Shown here: positions 55,891 through 61,302 of the stretch, piece after piece
Layout: each line of letters starts with the position of its first letter
Position numbering within the stretch: the stretch's first letter is position 1
Source of the DNA: Escherichia coli
Lineage (GTDB): Bacteria > Pseudomonadota > Gammaproteobacteria > Enterobacterales > Enterobacteriaceae
Assembly (NCBI RefSeq): GCF_016026235.1
Contig: NZ_CP065613.1
Reading direction: 5' to 3' (one strand)
Length of the DNA: 64,000 bases
The notes under the pieces: model-generated
Database searches by the model: none
Told to the model about the DNA's origin: nothing
The model's input: only the letters and a program-made list of their open reading frames with translations
Position numbers and translations under genes: made by a program

Positions 55891-56939
55891 TCAGTTCGAT
55901 ACCTGGGGTATTCGACGACGACGTAGACTGTTCCATGAATAGACTGCGTTGAATAACACTACGCCAGCGGTGACGAGAAATACCGCTCTGAAACCGTAGT
56001 TCGCTGAAATCGCTGCTCCCATCAATGGTCCGGTAACGTTGCCAATATCACGAAACGATTGGTTATAGCTGAAGATACGCCCGGCGATCTGGTTGCTCGA
56101 GTTGTAAACCAACAGTGTCTGTACGGCGGGGAGTAGTGCACCATCGGCGGCACCGAGCAAAAAACGTAAAATCCCAAGTTGCAATGGCGTCTGAACGTAA
56201 GACATTGGGATCAACAGCAGTACAGAAAAGATCAGCGCTGTAATCAGGATCTTTTCGGGTCCGATTCGATCGCCAAGTTTGCCGAGTCGTGGTGCGCTTA
56301 GCAGAGCCGCCACGCCTGGCACCGAGGCGATCATGCCACTGATAAAGGCGACGTTACTGACGTTACCCGCCAGTTCGCGGACATACAGCGTCAGAATGGG
56401 GGCAATTGAGCCTGTCGCCACCTGGATGATTAACGTGGTGACAAACAGGCTGAGTACCAGTTTCGGGTTTTTAAGTGATGTCACCACTTCCCGCATGTGC
56501 AGCATCTCTTTTTTGCTGACCGGCTGGAATTTTTCTCTGATGCAGAACAGGGTGACGAAAAAGCAGAGTATGAGCACACTGGCGGTAATAAAGAATACCG
56601 GACGTAAGCCGTAGCTATCGGCGAGCAGGCCGCCAGCCATTGGGCCGAGCAACGCACCACTAACGCCGCCTGTGGAGAGCGTACCCAGCGCCCAGCCGCT
56701 TTTATTACGCGGTACTTGTGTGGCGATAAGAGCATTAGCGTTGGGGACAAATCCGCCAAGTAACCCAAGAAGCGCCCGTAGGATCAAAAACTGCCAGATA
56801 TTTTGTGCCAGTCCCATCAACACCATCACGATGCCCATGCCGAGAGCAGAGCGTAATAGCATGAGTTTTCGGCCTTTACGGTCGGCGAGTCCACCCCAAA
56901 ACGGTGAGGCGATGGCCGAAAATAAAAATGTAATGCTGA
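55891..56939 (-). pseudogene. mdtG: mdtG (MFS efflux pump), missing about the first 60 codons through insertion of a mobile element
   Basis: The reverse frame reads ...[35 protein letters not shown]... through to the stop at 55891. Recognisable MdtG sequence ends at about 56938-56940, where the composition switches to AT-rich. Confidence 0.88.
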
Positions 56940-57400
56940 TATTTGTTCCCTAAATACACTATGAGAACATACCTGTTAATTACAGGACAATATCAGGTGA
57001 ATGACCATGCAATTTAATAGTAGATTTCCAAGTATCTAAGCAGTTTTACACAGATTCTATGCAGTATCTTACAATCCCCTACACCACCTCTAAATAACAT
57101 AACTTATTGAAATATATAGAGAATCTGTAAAGCCTCTTTTCAGGGAACTATGCAGGGTGTTAGTCGTCCCTCTCCAGACACTACATATAGTGCTATATAC
57201 AGGGCCATATAACGATATATAGATGCTTGGTCACGTGGTGTAACTATCAAGAAACTTAACGATTTCCTGCGTGAAAGTTAGAAGTGATGGCTATAGTTAC
57301 CCTCCTGAATCTTCATAGTTGATTCGGTTAGTTGGGCTTGTTATGAAGATGCTTCATCCGAATCATCTACCAACCCCTAATCAACCTCATGCGCTCTATT

Positions 57401-57513
57401 AACCAGTCTCATAAGGAAGTCCTTTTGAGACACTTTCAACGTAACGGTAGAATGCACCCTCAAGTAGTCTCAAAAGGTTGTTTTTGGATTATGAGACTAA
57501 CTTTTGAGACTTC
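57401..57513. promoter_or_regulatory. res-like / operator array: five copies of CTTWTGAGAC around the recombinase promoter
   Basis: Motif positions: 57406-57415 (-), 57422-57431 (+), 57467-57476 (-), 57488-57497 (+) and 57501-57510 (+). They are arranged as two inverted pairs plus one half-site. Confidence 0.6.
57425..57453 (+). promoter_or_regulatory. Sigma-70 promoter upstream of the recombinase gene
   Basis: TTGAGA (57425-57430), 17 nt spacer, TAGAAT (57448-57453). Confidence 0.6.
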
Positions 57514-57526
57514 TAAGGGGAACATT

Positions 57527-58078
57527 ATGGCGATACTTGGATATTGCAGGGTGAGTACAGATGACCAATCCATCACTAACCAGCAAATGCAAATTGAAGA
57601 GGCAGGGTACAACATTGCTAAATGGTTCACTGATGAAGCTGTCAGTGGTTCTGTCAAAGCTTCTTTAAGAAACGGTTTCAGTAGTTTGTTAGCTTATGCA
57701 CGAGAAGGTGACACCGTAGTTGTGGTAGCTGTAGACCGTCTTGGACGTGACACAATTGATGTGTTATCAACGGTTAAAGCGCTACAGGCTAAAGGTGTGA
57801 CAGTTATCAGCCTTAGAGAAGGGTTTGACTTATCAAGCGCTATGGGTGAAGCAATGTTAGGCATTATGTCAACGTTGGCACAGCTTGAAAGAAGCTTGAT
57901 AGCAGAGCGTAGAAAGGCTGGTATTGAACGTGCTAAAGCTGAAGGGGTACATATGGGAAGACCTGTAAAAGCTTCTTCAGAGGCTGTACAGATGCTTATT
58001 TCACAAGGTAAAACGAGGTTGCAGATTCAGGAAGAGCTAGGAATCTCTAGAGCAACTTATTACAGACTTGCTAAATAA
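57527..58078 (+). CDS. Small serine recombinase (resolvase/invertase family)
   Basis: 183 aa from ATG 57527 with SD AAGGGG. Starts MAILGYCRVSTDDQ, containing the catalytic Ser. Also has VDRLGRD and a C-terminal GRP...ISRATYYRL HTH. Confidence 0.88.
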   Translation: MAILGYCRVSTDDQSITNQQMQIEEAGYNIAKWFTDEAVSGSVKASLRNGFSSLLAYAREGDTVVVVAVDRLGRDTIDVLSTVKALQAKGVTVISLREGFDLSSAMGEAMLGIMSTLAQLERSLIAERRKAGIERAKAEGVHMGRPVKASSEAVQMLISQGKTRLQIQEELGISRATYYRLAK

Positions 58079-58422
58079 GTTATTAAACAGTTACATGGAT
58101 GTGACTGATATTTGGCTTTTTTGCAAAGGGGGTGCTATATCGAGAATGTACCGTACCAAGCAGCTACAGACATCTGTTAGATATTTTCGAAGATTTTTAG
58201 AAGGGGAATTTGAAGAGGGGCTACTACGATTTTATAAAAATTTTCAGATTCTGAAAAGTTACTGTACAGAATACATACAGACATCTTTAAAGTATCTATA
58301 AAGACTTTTAAGATAAAAGATAGATATCCCAGAAAGGATATCCGTTTAGAAAGCCTGTTAAGTATCTCTTAAAAGAGAGTAAACCTTGTCAATAGTGATT
58401 GCAATAAAAATTTTTATTTCTT

Positions 58423-59085
58423 ATGTCAATTGAGCATATTTTAATCGGGAAACATCATGGGGGTTCTGATTACTGGAGAACTCCATTTCTTATATTCCGC
58501 AATTTGCACCGTGAATTTATTTTCAGTCTGGATGGTGCTGCAACTGAGCATGACACGCTGTTACCACGATTCACCGATGATATTCACAATCAGTCATGGG
58601 ATGGTGAAAGGGTCTTCGTTAACCCACCATACAGCGACACTAAAACATTCCTCGTAAAAGCGTCTGAAGCAGATTTAGCGGTATTCCTGATACCGTACCG
58701 ACCCCAAACCATATACTGGCTTAAGCACATCTTCACAAACCCGCTTTGCCATGAAATCCGTATTCTTCATCGTGCAGTTAAATACCTTCCACCAGCAGGG
58801 CATAACAGGCTTACTATTAGGTCACCGTTTCCAAGTGCAGTCGTTGTTTTTAAAAAAGAACCACGTAAGCATGAAATTACACAGATGATTTGCTGTGGTG
58901 ACACATTGCTACCGTTAACCATCATTAACCGTGGTGGACTAAGAGGAAGACCCACCATTTACCCACCTGAGACGCTCGACAGCTTCATAAAACTATACAG
59001 GCAAGGCAAACCCATTAAGTGCATTGCAGATGCTCTCAGAATGCCCCTGAGCACGTCATACAGGATTGCTCAAAGGTTGAGCTAA
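58423..59085 (+). CDS. Phage-type DNA N6-adenine methyltransferase (Dam-like) fused to a C-terminal Hin/resolvase-type HTH
   Basis: 220 aa with DYWRTP...FSLDGAA...VFVNPPYS (NPPY catalytic motif). The C-terminus reads GRPTIYPPETLDSFIKLYRQGKPIKCIADALRMPLSTSYRIAQRL. Confidence 0.75.
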   Translation: MSIEHILIGKHHGGSDYWRTPFLIFRNLHREFIFSLDGAATEHDTLLPRFTDDIHNQSWDGERVFVNPPYSDTKTFLVKASEADLAVFLIPYRPQTIYWLKHIFTNPLCHEIRILHRAVKYLPPAGHNRLTIRSPFPSAVVVFKKEPRKHEITQMICCGDTLLPLTIINRGGLRGRPTIYPPETLDSFIKLYRQGKPIKCIADALRMPLSTSYRIAQRLS

Positions 59086-59189
59086 AATTCTCATAAATAT
59101 GGTCATTTACAAGACAGGTGTTTTAGATATTAAGAAGTATCCCTGTGAACAATAAATGACCAATCAGTAATTATTCTGTGAAATAATTG

Positions 59190-59218
59190 TTGCAATTTAT
59201 AATCACATCTGTTATAGT
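59190..59218 (+). promoter_or_regulatory. Candidate sigma-70 promoter upstream of the rep gene
   Basis: TTGCAA (59190-59195), 17 nt spacer, TATAGT (59213-59218). A ~240-nt leader precedes the ATG at 59466. Confidence 0.45.
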
Positions 59219-59465
59219 TTCTATGGGCTGATAAAAGAACTCAGAACATTAAGAGGTTACAACGTTGGGAGGCGTCAGAGTATTGACGGATTTTCACAGC
59301 CTCTTATTCATTCAAGGCTTTTCCTTTTGCTGTTAATGCTCGCGTAATCGCTCAGGCTTCTGAGTTCCTTTATCAGTCCATCTTCTAATTAATTCACTCC
59401 CTCTGGGGTTGGTCACTATACGTGGTCAGCCCTTTCTTTGTTTTATTTTTAAAAAGGAAAACGTA

Positions 59466-60401
59466 ATGGAAAAATTTCACATGTTTGATGACCGTATTTA
59501 TCAGATGACTAATGGCGTTAAAGCTGCCGACCGTATTATTTACACTGTCATGTTGAATGAACAAAAGTTTTATCACGATAAGGGGCAATATTATACCCCT
59601 TCATATGCTCATCTTGGTCAGTATGCTGGAATCACAAGAACATCCGTGATTGCATGTATGAAACGACTTGAGGCACATGGTTTAATCAAGAAAACTAACG
59701 TTGCAAGCAATCAGTGTGTTATTAAAGTTTATTCACTTGATGAAGTACCGGAAGTTTTAACAGAGCTTACAGCTAAGGAAGCCAGAAAGGCAAAGCTGGA
59801 GTCTAAAGTTACTCAGTCAGTCAAGAAAGATGACCCACTGAGTCAAAATTCTTTACCCACTGAGTCAAAATTTTTTACTCAGTCAGTCAAAATCTTTGAC
59901 ACGTATAATAACAGTAATAACAAGAAAGAACTTATTAATAACAATAAAGAAGATGACTTTGAAGAAGAATCTCTTAAGAAGGGAGCTTCGCTCTGTGATT
60001 CACATGAATGTGATTCTCTTGGTATTGAAGAGGCTATTAAACAATCTGACTTGGATGACCTTGATAAAGAGGCTATTAAACAAGATGAAGTAAACTCTGA
60101 TGTGAATGAAGTTAGTGACCAGCAAGATACACCTTGCCGCCTCGAATCAACTGATGATGAATTACCGGATGTTGACCTTGATGATGAAGAAGACCCTGAA
60201 GAGGAATTGAAACGTGAACAGCGTAAAGCAGAAATTAAAGAAAGATTCAGAAAGGCGAAGCTAAAGAGCAGGATTGATGAACTTGATGACTTTGATGATA
60301 GTGACGATGATTTTACTTTTACACCAAAAAAGAAAACTCACACCGAGCCAAAGAAAGAAAAAGTTAAAGTCAGACGTGTTTATGGTGGAGGAATGTTTTA
60401 A
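59466..60401 (+). CDS. Replication-initiator-like protein (N-terminal winged HTH, acidic low-complexity C-terminal half)
   Basis: 311 aa from ATG 59466 with SD AAGGA. Contains GITRTSVIACMKRLEAHGLIKK (wHTH). The iteron array lies inside the coding region, as for lambda O. Confidence 0.6.
   Translation: MEKFHMFDDRIYQMTNGVKAADRIIYTVMLNEQKFYHDKGQYYTPSYAHLGQYAGITRTSVIACMKRLEAHGLIKKTNVASNQCVIKVYSLDEVPEVLTELTAKEARKAKLESKVTQSVKKDDPLSQNSLPTESKFFTQSVKIFDTYNNSNNKKELINNNKEDDFEEESLKKGASLCDSHECDSLGIEEAIKQSDLDDLDKEAIKQDEVNSDVNEVSDQQDTPCRLESTDDELPDVDLDDEEDPEEELKREQRKAEIKERFRKAKLKSRIDELDDFDDSDDDFTFTPKKKTHTEPKKEKVKVRRVYGGGMF
59811..59960 (+). repeat. Putative origin: four 22-bp-phased iterons followed by an AT-rich tract
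   Basis: ACTCAGTCAGTCAA (59811), ACCCACTGAGTCAAAATT (59833 and 59855) and ACTCAGTCAGTCAAAAT (59877). The AGTCAA cores sit at 59819, 59841, 59863 and 59885. An AT-rich run follows at 59899-59960. Confidence 0.65.
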
Positions 60402-60691
60402 TGAAAACTTATAATGGCGAGAGAAAATACCGTGACTATTTACTCAGACGTTACAGCATTTCTCGTGAAGGTTACTTGATGAAAGATACTCACGGGGAAG
60501 TTTACCGGATTCGACCGAAGAAAGAAGGGAGGGATTATTATTTCGTCGATGGTGTGACAGATTTAAAGATTGACGCTTTGAGGTTTGCAGTGATGTATCA
60601 TTTTGATATCTGGGATTCAGTCCACCAGCTACGATTAAAAGACGGTGACCCCAATAACTTAAAGGCCACCAATATTATCACAAAACGTTAG
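60401..60691 (+). CDS. Small NUMOD4 / HNH_3-like (homing-endonuclease-like) protein, probably degenerate
   Basis: 96 aa with a TAATG overlap with the rep stop. Has YSISREGYLM (NUMOD4-like) and VHQLRLKDGDPNNLKATNI (HNH_3-like). The call rests on motifs only. Confidence 0.45.
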   Translation: MKTYNGERKYRDYLLRRYSISREGYLMKDTHGEVYRIRPKKEGRDYYFVDGVTDLKIDALRFAVMYHFDIWDSVHQLRLKDGDPNNLKATNIITKR

Positions 60692-60873
60692 TTTGTTTTA
60701 CCATCATCAATCGTAATTGTGATTTCATATTTGAAAAGCTTAATGCTGAAATTGAATCGTGTACTTTTGGCGATAATCATTTTTAAAAGCTGATACACCA
60801 GAAGCACCAGAAACACAAAGCAACCTAAGCTTGCGAATCTGTGAGATTCAGCAATTGTTTCAAGAAAGCCCAT
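60688..60873 (-). CDS. Small single-pass membrane protein (hypothetical)
   Basis: 61 aa with an ATG start and SD AAGGGG. TM segment LGCFVFLVLLVYQLLKMIIA. It has its own promoter, TTGTCA-17-TATTAT (60953-60925). Confidence 0.5.
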   Translation of the reverse strand: MGFLETIAESHRFASLGCFVFLVLLVYQLLKMIIAKSTRFNFSIKLFKYEITITIDDGKTN

Positions 60874-60924
60874 TAATTCCCCTTATTTATCAAAGGGAAT
60901 GACCTGTATCAGCCCCCTATAAAC

Positions 60925-60975
60925 ATAATATCATGTAAATGAGATGTTGACAATATGTTAAATAAATGTTAAGAT
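60925..60975. promoter_or_regulatory. Divergent promoter pair with overlapping -35 hexamers
   Basis: Plus strand: TTGACA (60947-60952), 17 nt, TGT-TAAGAT (60970-60975). Minus strand: TTGTCA (60953-60948), 17 nt, TATTAT (60930-60925). Confidence 0.55.
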
Positions 60976-61011
60976 TGTAGTATGAGCAAGAGATTTAAGG
61001 AGATTTTTGCA

Positions 61012-61302
61012 ATGACTCACACAGTTACGCGCCTTTTGCCAGAGGCATTTGAACGACTGGCAGCAATCAAAGCCAAATACCCTGATATGAAGCACACAGC
61101 GCTTGTTGGAGAGCTTTTAAAAGAGTCGGTAGCCCTGACCCCTTTCGATAACGTTAAGGGCGTTGCAGAGGGTTCTAAGGCCATCAGAATCACAACAGGC
61201 CAACTGGAACTACTCAAAGCACAGTCCGCAGTAGCAGGTTGCTCAATGATTCAGGTGTTAAGCGCGAAGGTTCATCAACTGGCGGATAGATTGGAGGTTT
61301 GA
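61012..61302 (+). CDS. Putative tandem ribbon-helix-helix regulator
   Basis: 96 aa from ATG 61012 with a strong SD AAGGAG. Two RHH-like segments (HTVTRLLPEAFERLAAIKAKY... and KAIRITTGQLELLKAQSAVAG...). The fold is inferred by eye only. Confidence 0.5.
   Translation: MTHTVTRLLPEAFERLAAIKAKYPDMKHTALVGELLKESVALTPFDNVKGVAEGSKAIRITTGQLELLKAQSAVAGCSMIQVLSAKVHQLADRLEV

Follow-up and report, generated by a model that had tools for sequence, protein, structure and literature searches.

A small serine recombinase gene in a 64-kb stretch of an Escherichia coli chromosome (contig NZ_CP065613.1; this whole stretch is called the window below) lies near the left end of an integrated island and is preceded by a dense array of short repeats. 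What this array is for is the question raised by the locus. It might be a recombination site used by the recombinase, an operator, one end of an invertible segment, or the site by which the island is attached to the chromosome. The best reading of the compared sequences seems to be a res site of hybrid design, combining a Tn3-like site I and an inverted site II with a gene-proximal head-to-tail site of the Sin type. That the array serves the adjacent small serine recombinase as a res-type recombination and regulatory site is judged to be rather likely. Resolvase/res systems are textbook knowledge for transposons and plasmids, and they have been shown for integrative islands only recently, in Salmonella genomic island 1 (SGI1).

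The repeat array and its conservation

Five copies of the 9-mer TTWTGAGAC are found upstream of the recombinase gene. Copy 1 is found at 57406-57415 (minus strand, CTTATGAGAC), copy 2 at 57422-57431 (plus strand, CTTTTGAGAC), copy 3 at 57467-57476 (minus strand, CTTTTGAGAC), copy 4 at 57488-57497 (plus strand, ATTATGAGAC), and copy 5 at 57501-57510 (plus strand, CTTTTGAGAC). The initial annotation had placed and oriented all five correctly, but had described them as five occurrences of the 10-mer CTTWTGAGAC; copy 4 starts with an A, and it is only the 9-mer core that is present five times. The 10-mer occurs four times against 0.16 expected, and four or more matches were reached in none of 100 shuffled sequences. 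All five exact matches to the 9-mer fall within 105 bp (57406-57510), and a simple Poisson estimate with a uniform base model gives a probability of about 6e-12 that some 105-bp stretch of the window contains five copies or more. The clustering is far beyond chance. Extended to 12 bp, the copies read (A)GTCTCAWAAGGN.

The copies are arranged in three putative binding sites. Copies 1 and 2 form site A (57406-57431), the putative crossover site or "site I". It is 26 bp long with a 12-2-12 layout, consisting of a left arm GTCTCATAAGGA (57406-57417), a central AG (57418-57419), and a right arm TCCTTTTGAGAC (57420-57431), and the arms agree at 11 of 12 positions. Copies 3 and 4 form site B (57467-57497), a putative accessory site of 31 bp with the structure GTCTCAAAAGG-N11-TTATGAGAC. 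The spacings GTCTC-N16-GAGAC and GTCTC-N21-GAGAC that had been noted earlier are correct and correspond to these inverted pairs of 26 and 31 bp. The centres of the two sites are 63.5 bp apart, which is about six helical turns. The last element, site C, is a head-to-tail pair of half-sites on the plus strand at 57489-57510, TTATGAGAC-TAAC-TTTTGAGAC, with a spacing of 13 bp. Copy 5 had been regarded as a lone half-site, but alignments with relatives show that it corresponds to the second member of a head-to-tail pair, and that one unit is missing in the window.

A predicted sigma-70 promoter, TTGAGA-17-TAGAAT, is embedded in the array at 57425-57453 on the plus strand. It is the top-scoring match of the region (56900-58500), agreeing with the consensus at 10 of 12 positions. 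The -35 element lies inside the right arm of site A, while sites B and C are found within the first approximately 50 nt of the predicted transcript. The -10 element, as (T/A/C)AGAAT, and its position are kept in the related loci L003, L017, L019, and L020, but not clearly in L014-L016, L021, and L022. A Shine-Dalgarno-like AAGGGG (57515-57520, plus strand) precedes the ATG of the recombinase gene by 6 nt.

The gene (57527-58078, plus strand) is the first of a co-oriented gene string and encodes a protein of 183 aa with an N-terminal Resolvase catalytic domain (PF00239, 6e-42) and a C-terminal HTH_7 domain (PF02796), the latter containing the recognition helix ISRATYYRL. Among proteins of known structure in PDB it matches γδ resolvase (6e-31), Tn3 resolvase (5e-28), and Gin invertase (8e-22), and it is 37% identical to γδ resolvase and 32% identical to Sin. 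The catalytic set R8, S10, D70-R71, R74, E121, and R128 is kept, and the residues matching Y6, R8, S10, D67, R68, R71, E118, and R125 of γδ resolvase are invariant across the family. A conserved Y57-x-R59 aligns with F52 and R54 of Sin.

Homologues were traced to their contigs mainly using a protein database and contig look-ups, while single-protein scans gave three loci from the genome collection and two from IMG/VR. The geometry of the array was compared for 14 loci, the window and 13 others, where the recombinases are 54-99% identical to that of the window. Arrays were found in E. coli, E. albertii, Klebsiella, Enterobacter, Cronobacter/Serratia, Raoultella, Citrobacter, Yersinia, and Aeromonas. 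In all 14 loci site A has a length of 26 bp, the centres of sites A and B are always 62.5-63.5 bp apart (5.9-6.1 helical turns), and site B spans 31 bp in 13 loci and 32 bp in L021. In each of the 13 other loci the right arm of site B is followed by two half-sites on the same strand, the first at +17 (range 16-18) and the next at a further +13, and in all 14 loci the last half-site ends 12-20 bp ahead of the ATG. The geometry is thus fixed over the roughly 140 bp ahead of the gene, while the intervening spacers have been free to diverge.

The half-sites also follow the protein. Recognition helices of the type IS(R/K)AT(Y/F)YRL are paired with GAGAC half-sites, while the Aeromonas protein has the helix CSVATVKRL and is paired with GAGCC. 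More distant relatives from plasmids and Pseudomonas have the helix SPA(S/T)VKRA, paired with GAGCT or GAGCC. The recombinases of L006 and L009 are 70-73% identical to the window protein overall, with a difference of about 30% in the catalytic domain. Over the last 58 residues, however, L006 does not differ from the window protein and L009 hardly does, and both arrays match the form with six half-sites found in L001 and L002. Judging from these comparisons, the array is under selection for a fixed geometry and belongs to the adjacent small recombinase, which very likely binds it. The proposal that res-like subsites surround the recombinase promoter thus finds support in the geometry with six half-sites of the 13 other loci, in the co-variation with the recognition helix, and in the kinship to γδ and Tn3 resolvases together with the catalytic residues.

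A hairpin function of the inverted repeats, in RNA or DNA, was considered and rejected. The arms of site B mutate independently (L003, L019, L020, and L021), for instance GTCTTAAAA with TTTTGATAC in L003, and since these changes are not compensated, base-pairing is not the conserved property. The copies on the same strand would moreover be unable to pair. An Rfam search of 56800-64000 gave no family match.

Arrays with different half-sites are found next to relatives with 52% identity in a Pseudomonas metagenome-assembled genome (L007:9960-9992) and on the E. coli plasmid pEC224_4 (L004:3895-3975). Both keep a head-to-tail pair just ahead of the ribosome-binding site, with a spacing of 13 bp in the former and 14 bp in the latter. 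On pEC224_4 the end of a TnAs1 element lies about 25 bp upstream of the remaining array, and the region across this insertion, which was searched for the distal part of the array, is rearranged. A "Res" protein encoded by a Neisseria plasmid (50% identity) has no room for an upstream array, a MarR gene ending about 50 bp upstream.

The copy of the array found in the window is real and ordinary in kind, but carries a deletion of its own. Where the relatives read ...GGATTATGAGACAGCTAAACTTATGAGACTAACTTTTGAGAC, the aligned window sequence reads ...GGATTATGAGACTAACTTTTGAGAC; it is without a 17-bp unit (TTATGAGACAGCTAAAC in the relatives) located between two identical TTATGAGAC 9-mers, and the junction lies somewhere within 57489-57497. 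The window array therefore has five of the six half-sites. As the unit is missing, a single half-site doubles as the right arm of site B and the first member of the head-to-tail pair, and at most five protomers are able to bind. An identical 183-aa protein is encoded at eight other loci, and six half-sites are found at all eight; two of them, L025 and L026, share the left arm and AG centre of the window. A 49-nt probe over the deletion junction was not matched over its full length in any of 5,426 complete E. coli genomes, while the undeleted right part of the array was matched in 78 of them. Within this collection the window array is a private deletion allele, and its accessory complex is probably impaired or weakened.

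Relationship to known resolution systems

The array resembles the res sites of Tn3 and γδ in several respects. The small serine recombinases are homologous, with γδ resolvase as the best-matching solved resolvase, and the gene is immediately preceded by an array of multiple subsites in which the presumed crossover site is the most distant one. Sites one and two both consist of inverted half-sites and differ in length, their centres being a whole number of helical turns apart; a predicted promoter is embedded in the array, and module boundaries are found at site I. The phased spacing of res sites I and II ranges from four to seven helical turns (PMC12217951), and the distance between sites A and B falls within this range. 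There are also clear differences. The two inverted subsites are 26 and 31 bp here, but 28 and 34 bp in Tn3 and γδ, and their distance is about six turns rather than five (PMC12217951). Where Tn3 and γδ have an inverted pair of 25 bp as the third subsite, the half-sites here run head to tail with a spacing of 13 bp, and the centre of the presumed crossover site is a non-palindromic AG, CT, or TC in place of AT (PMC12217951). The carrier also differs, being an integrative island in place of a replicative transposon. A strict Tn3 definition, three inverted pairs of 28, 34, and 25 bp, does not describe the array. The Tn3/γδ-type architecture suggested in the initial annotation needs amending at the third subsite, which is arranged like site II of Sin.

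In Sin, site II is made up of head-to-tail accessory half-sites, and F52 and R54 are residues of the regulatory interface that makes contacts between the regulatory and catalytic tetramers (PMC2428073). The array has a similar accessory site, as have the resH site of Sin and the six site of the β recombinase from Gram-positive plasmids, and the alignment of Y57 and R59 with these two residues suggests a further likeness. However, the res site of Sin consists of two dimer sites with an HU/IHF site in the spacer, 86 bp in all (PMC2428073), whereas here an inverted site of 31 bp, site B, separates site A from the head-to-tail pair, so that a strict Sin layout does not apply either. In its working the array would be akin to both.

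The closest parallel regarding the carrier is SGI1, where the resolvase Res/S027 and a 107-bp res site have been shown experimentally to remove island multimers (PMC12217951). There, too, a Tn3-like resolvase and its res site are found on an integrative, helper-dependent, replicating island of Enterobacteriaceae. Site III of SGI1 adjoins the gene, the promoter lies inside res, and the core is non-palindromic (AC) (PMC12217951). The SGI1 res differs in having three inverted boxes of 28, 30, and 25 bp (PMC12217951), and the helper of SGI1 is a conjugative plasmid, while that of the islands described here is presumed to be a phage.

Based on these likenesses, a mechanism may be proposed. Dimers of the recombinase would bind at three places, the inverted sites A and B and the head-to-tail pair, site C. 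Site A with its non-palindromic 2-bp centre would be the crossover site, with B and C as accessory sites that build a synaptic complex only between two directly repeated arrays on the same supercoiled molecule. Such a restriction would make the reaction a resolution, that is, a deletion. In nature the recombinase would act on the island of about 11.5 kb once it has left the chromosome and replicates, converting dimers, multimers, or tandem copies of it to monomers. The chance that multimer resolution is the main role is put at even or slightly better. Occupancy of the array would also repress the recombinase gene; since the -35 element falls inside site A and the predicted transcript begins just ahead of sites B and C, autorepression is to be expected, as in Tn3, where autoregulation of the resolvase at res is established (PMC7157771). 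Our inferences for this system thus concern the point of crossover, the reaction itself and its substrate, and the repression of the gene by its own product.

The same promoter arrangement would also fit an array that is an operator only. In that case the recombinase homologue would repress its own promoter, and perhaps downstream genes by read-through, with no recombination taking place. Resolvases are known to be repressors at res (PMC7157771), and the recombinase gene heads the co-oriented gene string mentioned above. However, R8, S10, D70, R71, R74, E121, and R128 are invariant down to 32% identity and would be needless for a pure repressor; their invariance indicates that catalysis is under selection, which argues against a protein acting only as a repressor. 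The rigid multi-site geometry and the 12-2-12 site with its non-palindromic centre are typical of a crossover site, breakpoints in both homology and linkage fall at site A (see below), and a weight-matrix scan found no further operators upstream of other island genes. A purely regulatory array is for these reasons considered unlikely.

What appears to be new in the res-type system favored here is the recombinase subfamily, the strictly conserved hybrid layout with six half-sites, and the spread on satellite-like and defence islands. No description of the subfamily, the hybrid layout, or the island distribution was found in a literature search whose scope did not extend to older subscription papers classifying res architectures. 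Many small islands in Enterobacterales and Aeromonas, satellite-like and defence-carrying, have a member of the subfamily. Should the function be confirmed, these arrays would provide a natural test of how accessory sites can be rearranged with the topological selectivity kept, and a new small recombinase with a defined site of about 130 bp would become available as a tool. The system would also have a bearing on the control of island copy state and on cargo exchange.

Site A as a candidate crossover point

The centre of site A is never palindromic. It is AG in the window, L014-L016, and L022, CT in the L001-type islands, L003, and L017, and TC in L019-L021. The central 8 bp are GGAAGTCC in the window, L025, and L026, while most E. 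coli copies have the exact reverse complement, GGACTTCC (centre at L001:20681-20682). This means that the polarity of the presumed crossover site is flipped between the alleles, the right-hand sequence being identical.

Homology between related loci is lost at this site. L015 and L016 match at every one of the 72 bp compared on the right-hand side of the site A centre and are unrelated just left of the outer edge of the site, and the homology between L019 and L020 is likewise lost left of the outer edge. The E. coli copies display a dense patch of differences over 30 bp that exists in two types, X (GCGCTCTATTAACCAGTCTCATAAGGA-AG) and Y (AGCTCCTTCATAACCAGTCTTAAAAGGA-CT). Its right-hand limit coincides exactly with the central dinucleotide, beyond which all ten sequences agree for 16 bp. 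Each type is seen with either state of two markers further to the right: the markers T...A accompany X in the window and Y in L001 and L002, while G...G accompany X in L025 and Y in L028. These combinations point to exchange within the 18 bp that start at the site A centre. Module exchange at res site I of Tn3-family transposons gives the same signature (PMC7157771). Site A is probably the crossover site.

The breakpoints also allow for a different emphasis, where the main role would be exchange between co-resident islands or replicons at site A, so that adjacent variable cargo is swapped and multimer resolution becomes secondary. In the relatives, variable cargo such as AbiTii, CBASS, TIR, DarTG, and an AAA_15 ATPase directly adjoins the module of recombinase and array. 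The loss of homology exactly at site A in L015/L016 and L019/L020, the free combination of the left X and Y types with the right haplotypes, and the published pattern at Tn3-family res sites (PMC7157771) would all be accounted for. Still, accessory sites normally limit the reaction to intramolecular resolution, with intermolecular events as rare by-products, and in the window-type island what separates the array from the island end is not cargo but about 450 bp of conserved non-coding DNA. Boundaries at hot spots can also arise without site-specific recombination. Exchange as the principal function is accordingly regarded as improbable. In a broader variant, a whole guild of small phage-satellite-like and defence islands in Enterobacterales would have the module in common as a portable site for docking and exchange. 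Recombination at site A would then reshuffle the cargo, defensive or structural, of islands residing together, and the monomer/concatemer state, on which the choice between maintenance and packaging by a helper phage depends, might be under the control of the recombinase as well. This is a speculative and decidedly doubtful proposal, but if true the system would be a cargo-exchange or life-cycle switch and not a housekeeping resolution system.

The sites used by the invertases Hin, Gin, and Pin (hix and gix) are 26 bp long with 12-bp arms and a 2-bp non-palindromic core, as is site A. The array could therefore be thought of as belonging to a DNA invertase system, with a hix/gix-like site A and an inverted partner surrounding an invertible segment, and both PHROGs and the source annotations label the protein "DNA invertase". 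The best PDB match is 2GM4, a γδ/Hin chimaera, and on this basis residues 96-105 or thereabouts of the recombinase resemble Hin. However, neither an inverted partner nor an invertible segment was found, and additional half-sites lie beside site A. A 12-bp weight-matrix scan of the window and of the complete islands L001 and L002 revealed no second paired site; the strong members of the array score at least 14, while the highest score elsewhere was 13.3. A blastn search with site A over the 5,426 E. coli genomes gave 207 places in 183 genomes, corresponding to one or two per genome and one per island, and in the array site A is accompanied by five other half-sites. The PDB matches to resolvases are better than that to Gin, and the protein scores 93 bits with the NCBIfam Mpi-invertase model, where the cutoff is 272. 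An inversion system is for these reasons very improbable.

In some genomes a single chromosome has two islands with site A. One of them, that of E. coli 90-3040 (NZ_CP027459.1), has two matches to site A, around 1822677 and at 2065164-2066819, on the same strand and approximately 243 kb apart.

Several points weigh against a resolution system. The case for binding, cleavage, and resolution is comparative throughout, and excision, circular forms, and replication of the island are deduced from its gene content alone. The breakpoints at site A could stem from homologous recombination, or from selection keeping the site beside a variable region. The promoter is a consensus match of a kind that is no more frequent in the region than in shuffled sequence, and its conservation seems clear in some subgroups and not in all. 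The window copy is one half-site short and may be non-functional as a res site. Finally, if the island is packaged from concatemers as a phage satellite, multimer resolution is not obviously useful.

The island carrying the array

The chromosomal part of the window is of the Escherichia/Shigella type, with opgGH, yceK, msyB, and mdtG. The latter gene is interrupted at about 56950 by the island, which extends past the end of the window. The left junction with mdtG and the terminal palindrome are found within 56950-56986, the junction itself lying approximately at 56950-56971. The palindrome, CCTGTTAATTACAGG at 56972-56986, is perfect and conserved, and it is the start of the sequence common to islands at different integration sites, while the approximately 35 bp outside it vary with the site. 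It is probably a part of, or located next to, the attP arm of a large serine integrase. In L002 a 13-bp sequence, CAATGACCCTTGA, is present at both island junctions.

Complete relatives of the island are found in mdtG (L001), at the start of tonB (L002 and L023-L028), and at a third site near yecN (L029). The complete copies L002:17965-29575 and L001:20250-34230 illustrate the size, which is about 11.5 kb; L001, with an IS21-family element inserted in its integrase gene, measures about 14 kb. The small recombinase is followed by a Dam-like methyltransferase with a C-terminal helix-turn-helix (HTH) of the resolvase type, an O-like replication initiator, several unknown proteins, a tape-measure protein of about 707 aa, and a Dit-like distal tail protein. 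At the far end a large serine recombinase of about 506 aa is encoded on the opposite strand. Apart from the tape-measure and Dit-like genes, no capsid, terminase, or tail genes were found in the complete relatives, and the island looks like a phage-satellite-like element supplying only two tail components. The large serine recombinase, rather than the small one, is thus likely to be the island integrase.

The position of the array bears on two further alternatives, namely that it is the attachment or integration site of the island, or that it consists of iterons or an operator bound by another island protein such as the initiator or the Dam-like protein with HTH_7. The array is indeed near the left island end, and the HTH of the methyltransferase is 33% identical to that of the recombinase. 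The initial annotation had mentioned a crossover site for integration as an alternative. This does not agree with the junction being located about 450 bp upstream, with the array being intact in every integrated copy whatever the insertion site (mdtG, tonB, or near yecN), or with all islands carrying a separate large serine or tyrosine integrase. As for other proteins, the array always accompanies the small recombinase, whichever replication gene the island has and also in islands without the Dam-HTH protein, and the motif co-varies with the recognition helix of the recombinase itself. Attachment site and foreign binding site are both considered to have hardly any probability. On the present alignments the array is neither an attachment site nor an inversion site. 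Initiator iterons and an operator for the Dam-HTH protein are excluded since both the O-like initiator and the Dam-HTH protein are absent from most of the array-bearing islands.

The homologues with 54-75% identity are located in small islands with large serine or tyrosine integrases. The replication genes of these islands vary (HTH_36, DUF5906 primase, BT4734-like), and so does the cargo, which includes a capsid protein, AbiTii, CBASS, TIR, DarTG, and an AAA_15 ATPase. Based on their gene content the array-bearing islands look like helper-dependent elements that excise and replicate. The literature search gave no description of this type of island, or of a small serine recombinase in phage-inducible chromosomal islands (PICI) or other satellite elements.

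Some minor features of the islands should be mentioned. The Dam-like N6-adenine methyltransferase (58423-59085) has its HTH_7 domain at residues 175-217, and this domain might direct methylation to specific sequences. A 233-aa fusion of the recombinase and the Dam-like protein is on record from Shigella sonnei (P0020). To the left of the array, at 57329-57379, nested insertions and deletions are found in the non-coding DNA. They involve a unit TAGTTGGGCTTG...TACCAACCCCTA that contains a 27-bp insert in the window and L002, is without the insert in L023, L025, and L026, and is absent at this position in L001. A short form of the unit is found elsewhere, near the island end, at L001:20310-20333 and L009:9509-9532, and the unit may be a small mobile or palindromic insert. 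In L025, a metagenome contig, the island adjoins a prophage tail-fibre region encoding a different small serine recombinase of 182 aa (L025:8241-8789). This is presumably a classical tail-fibre invertase, in which case two small serine recombinases of different function may be encoded within 2 kb.

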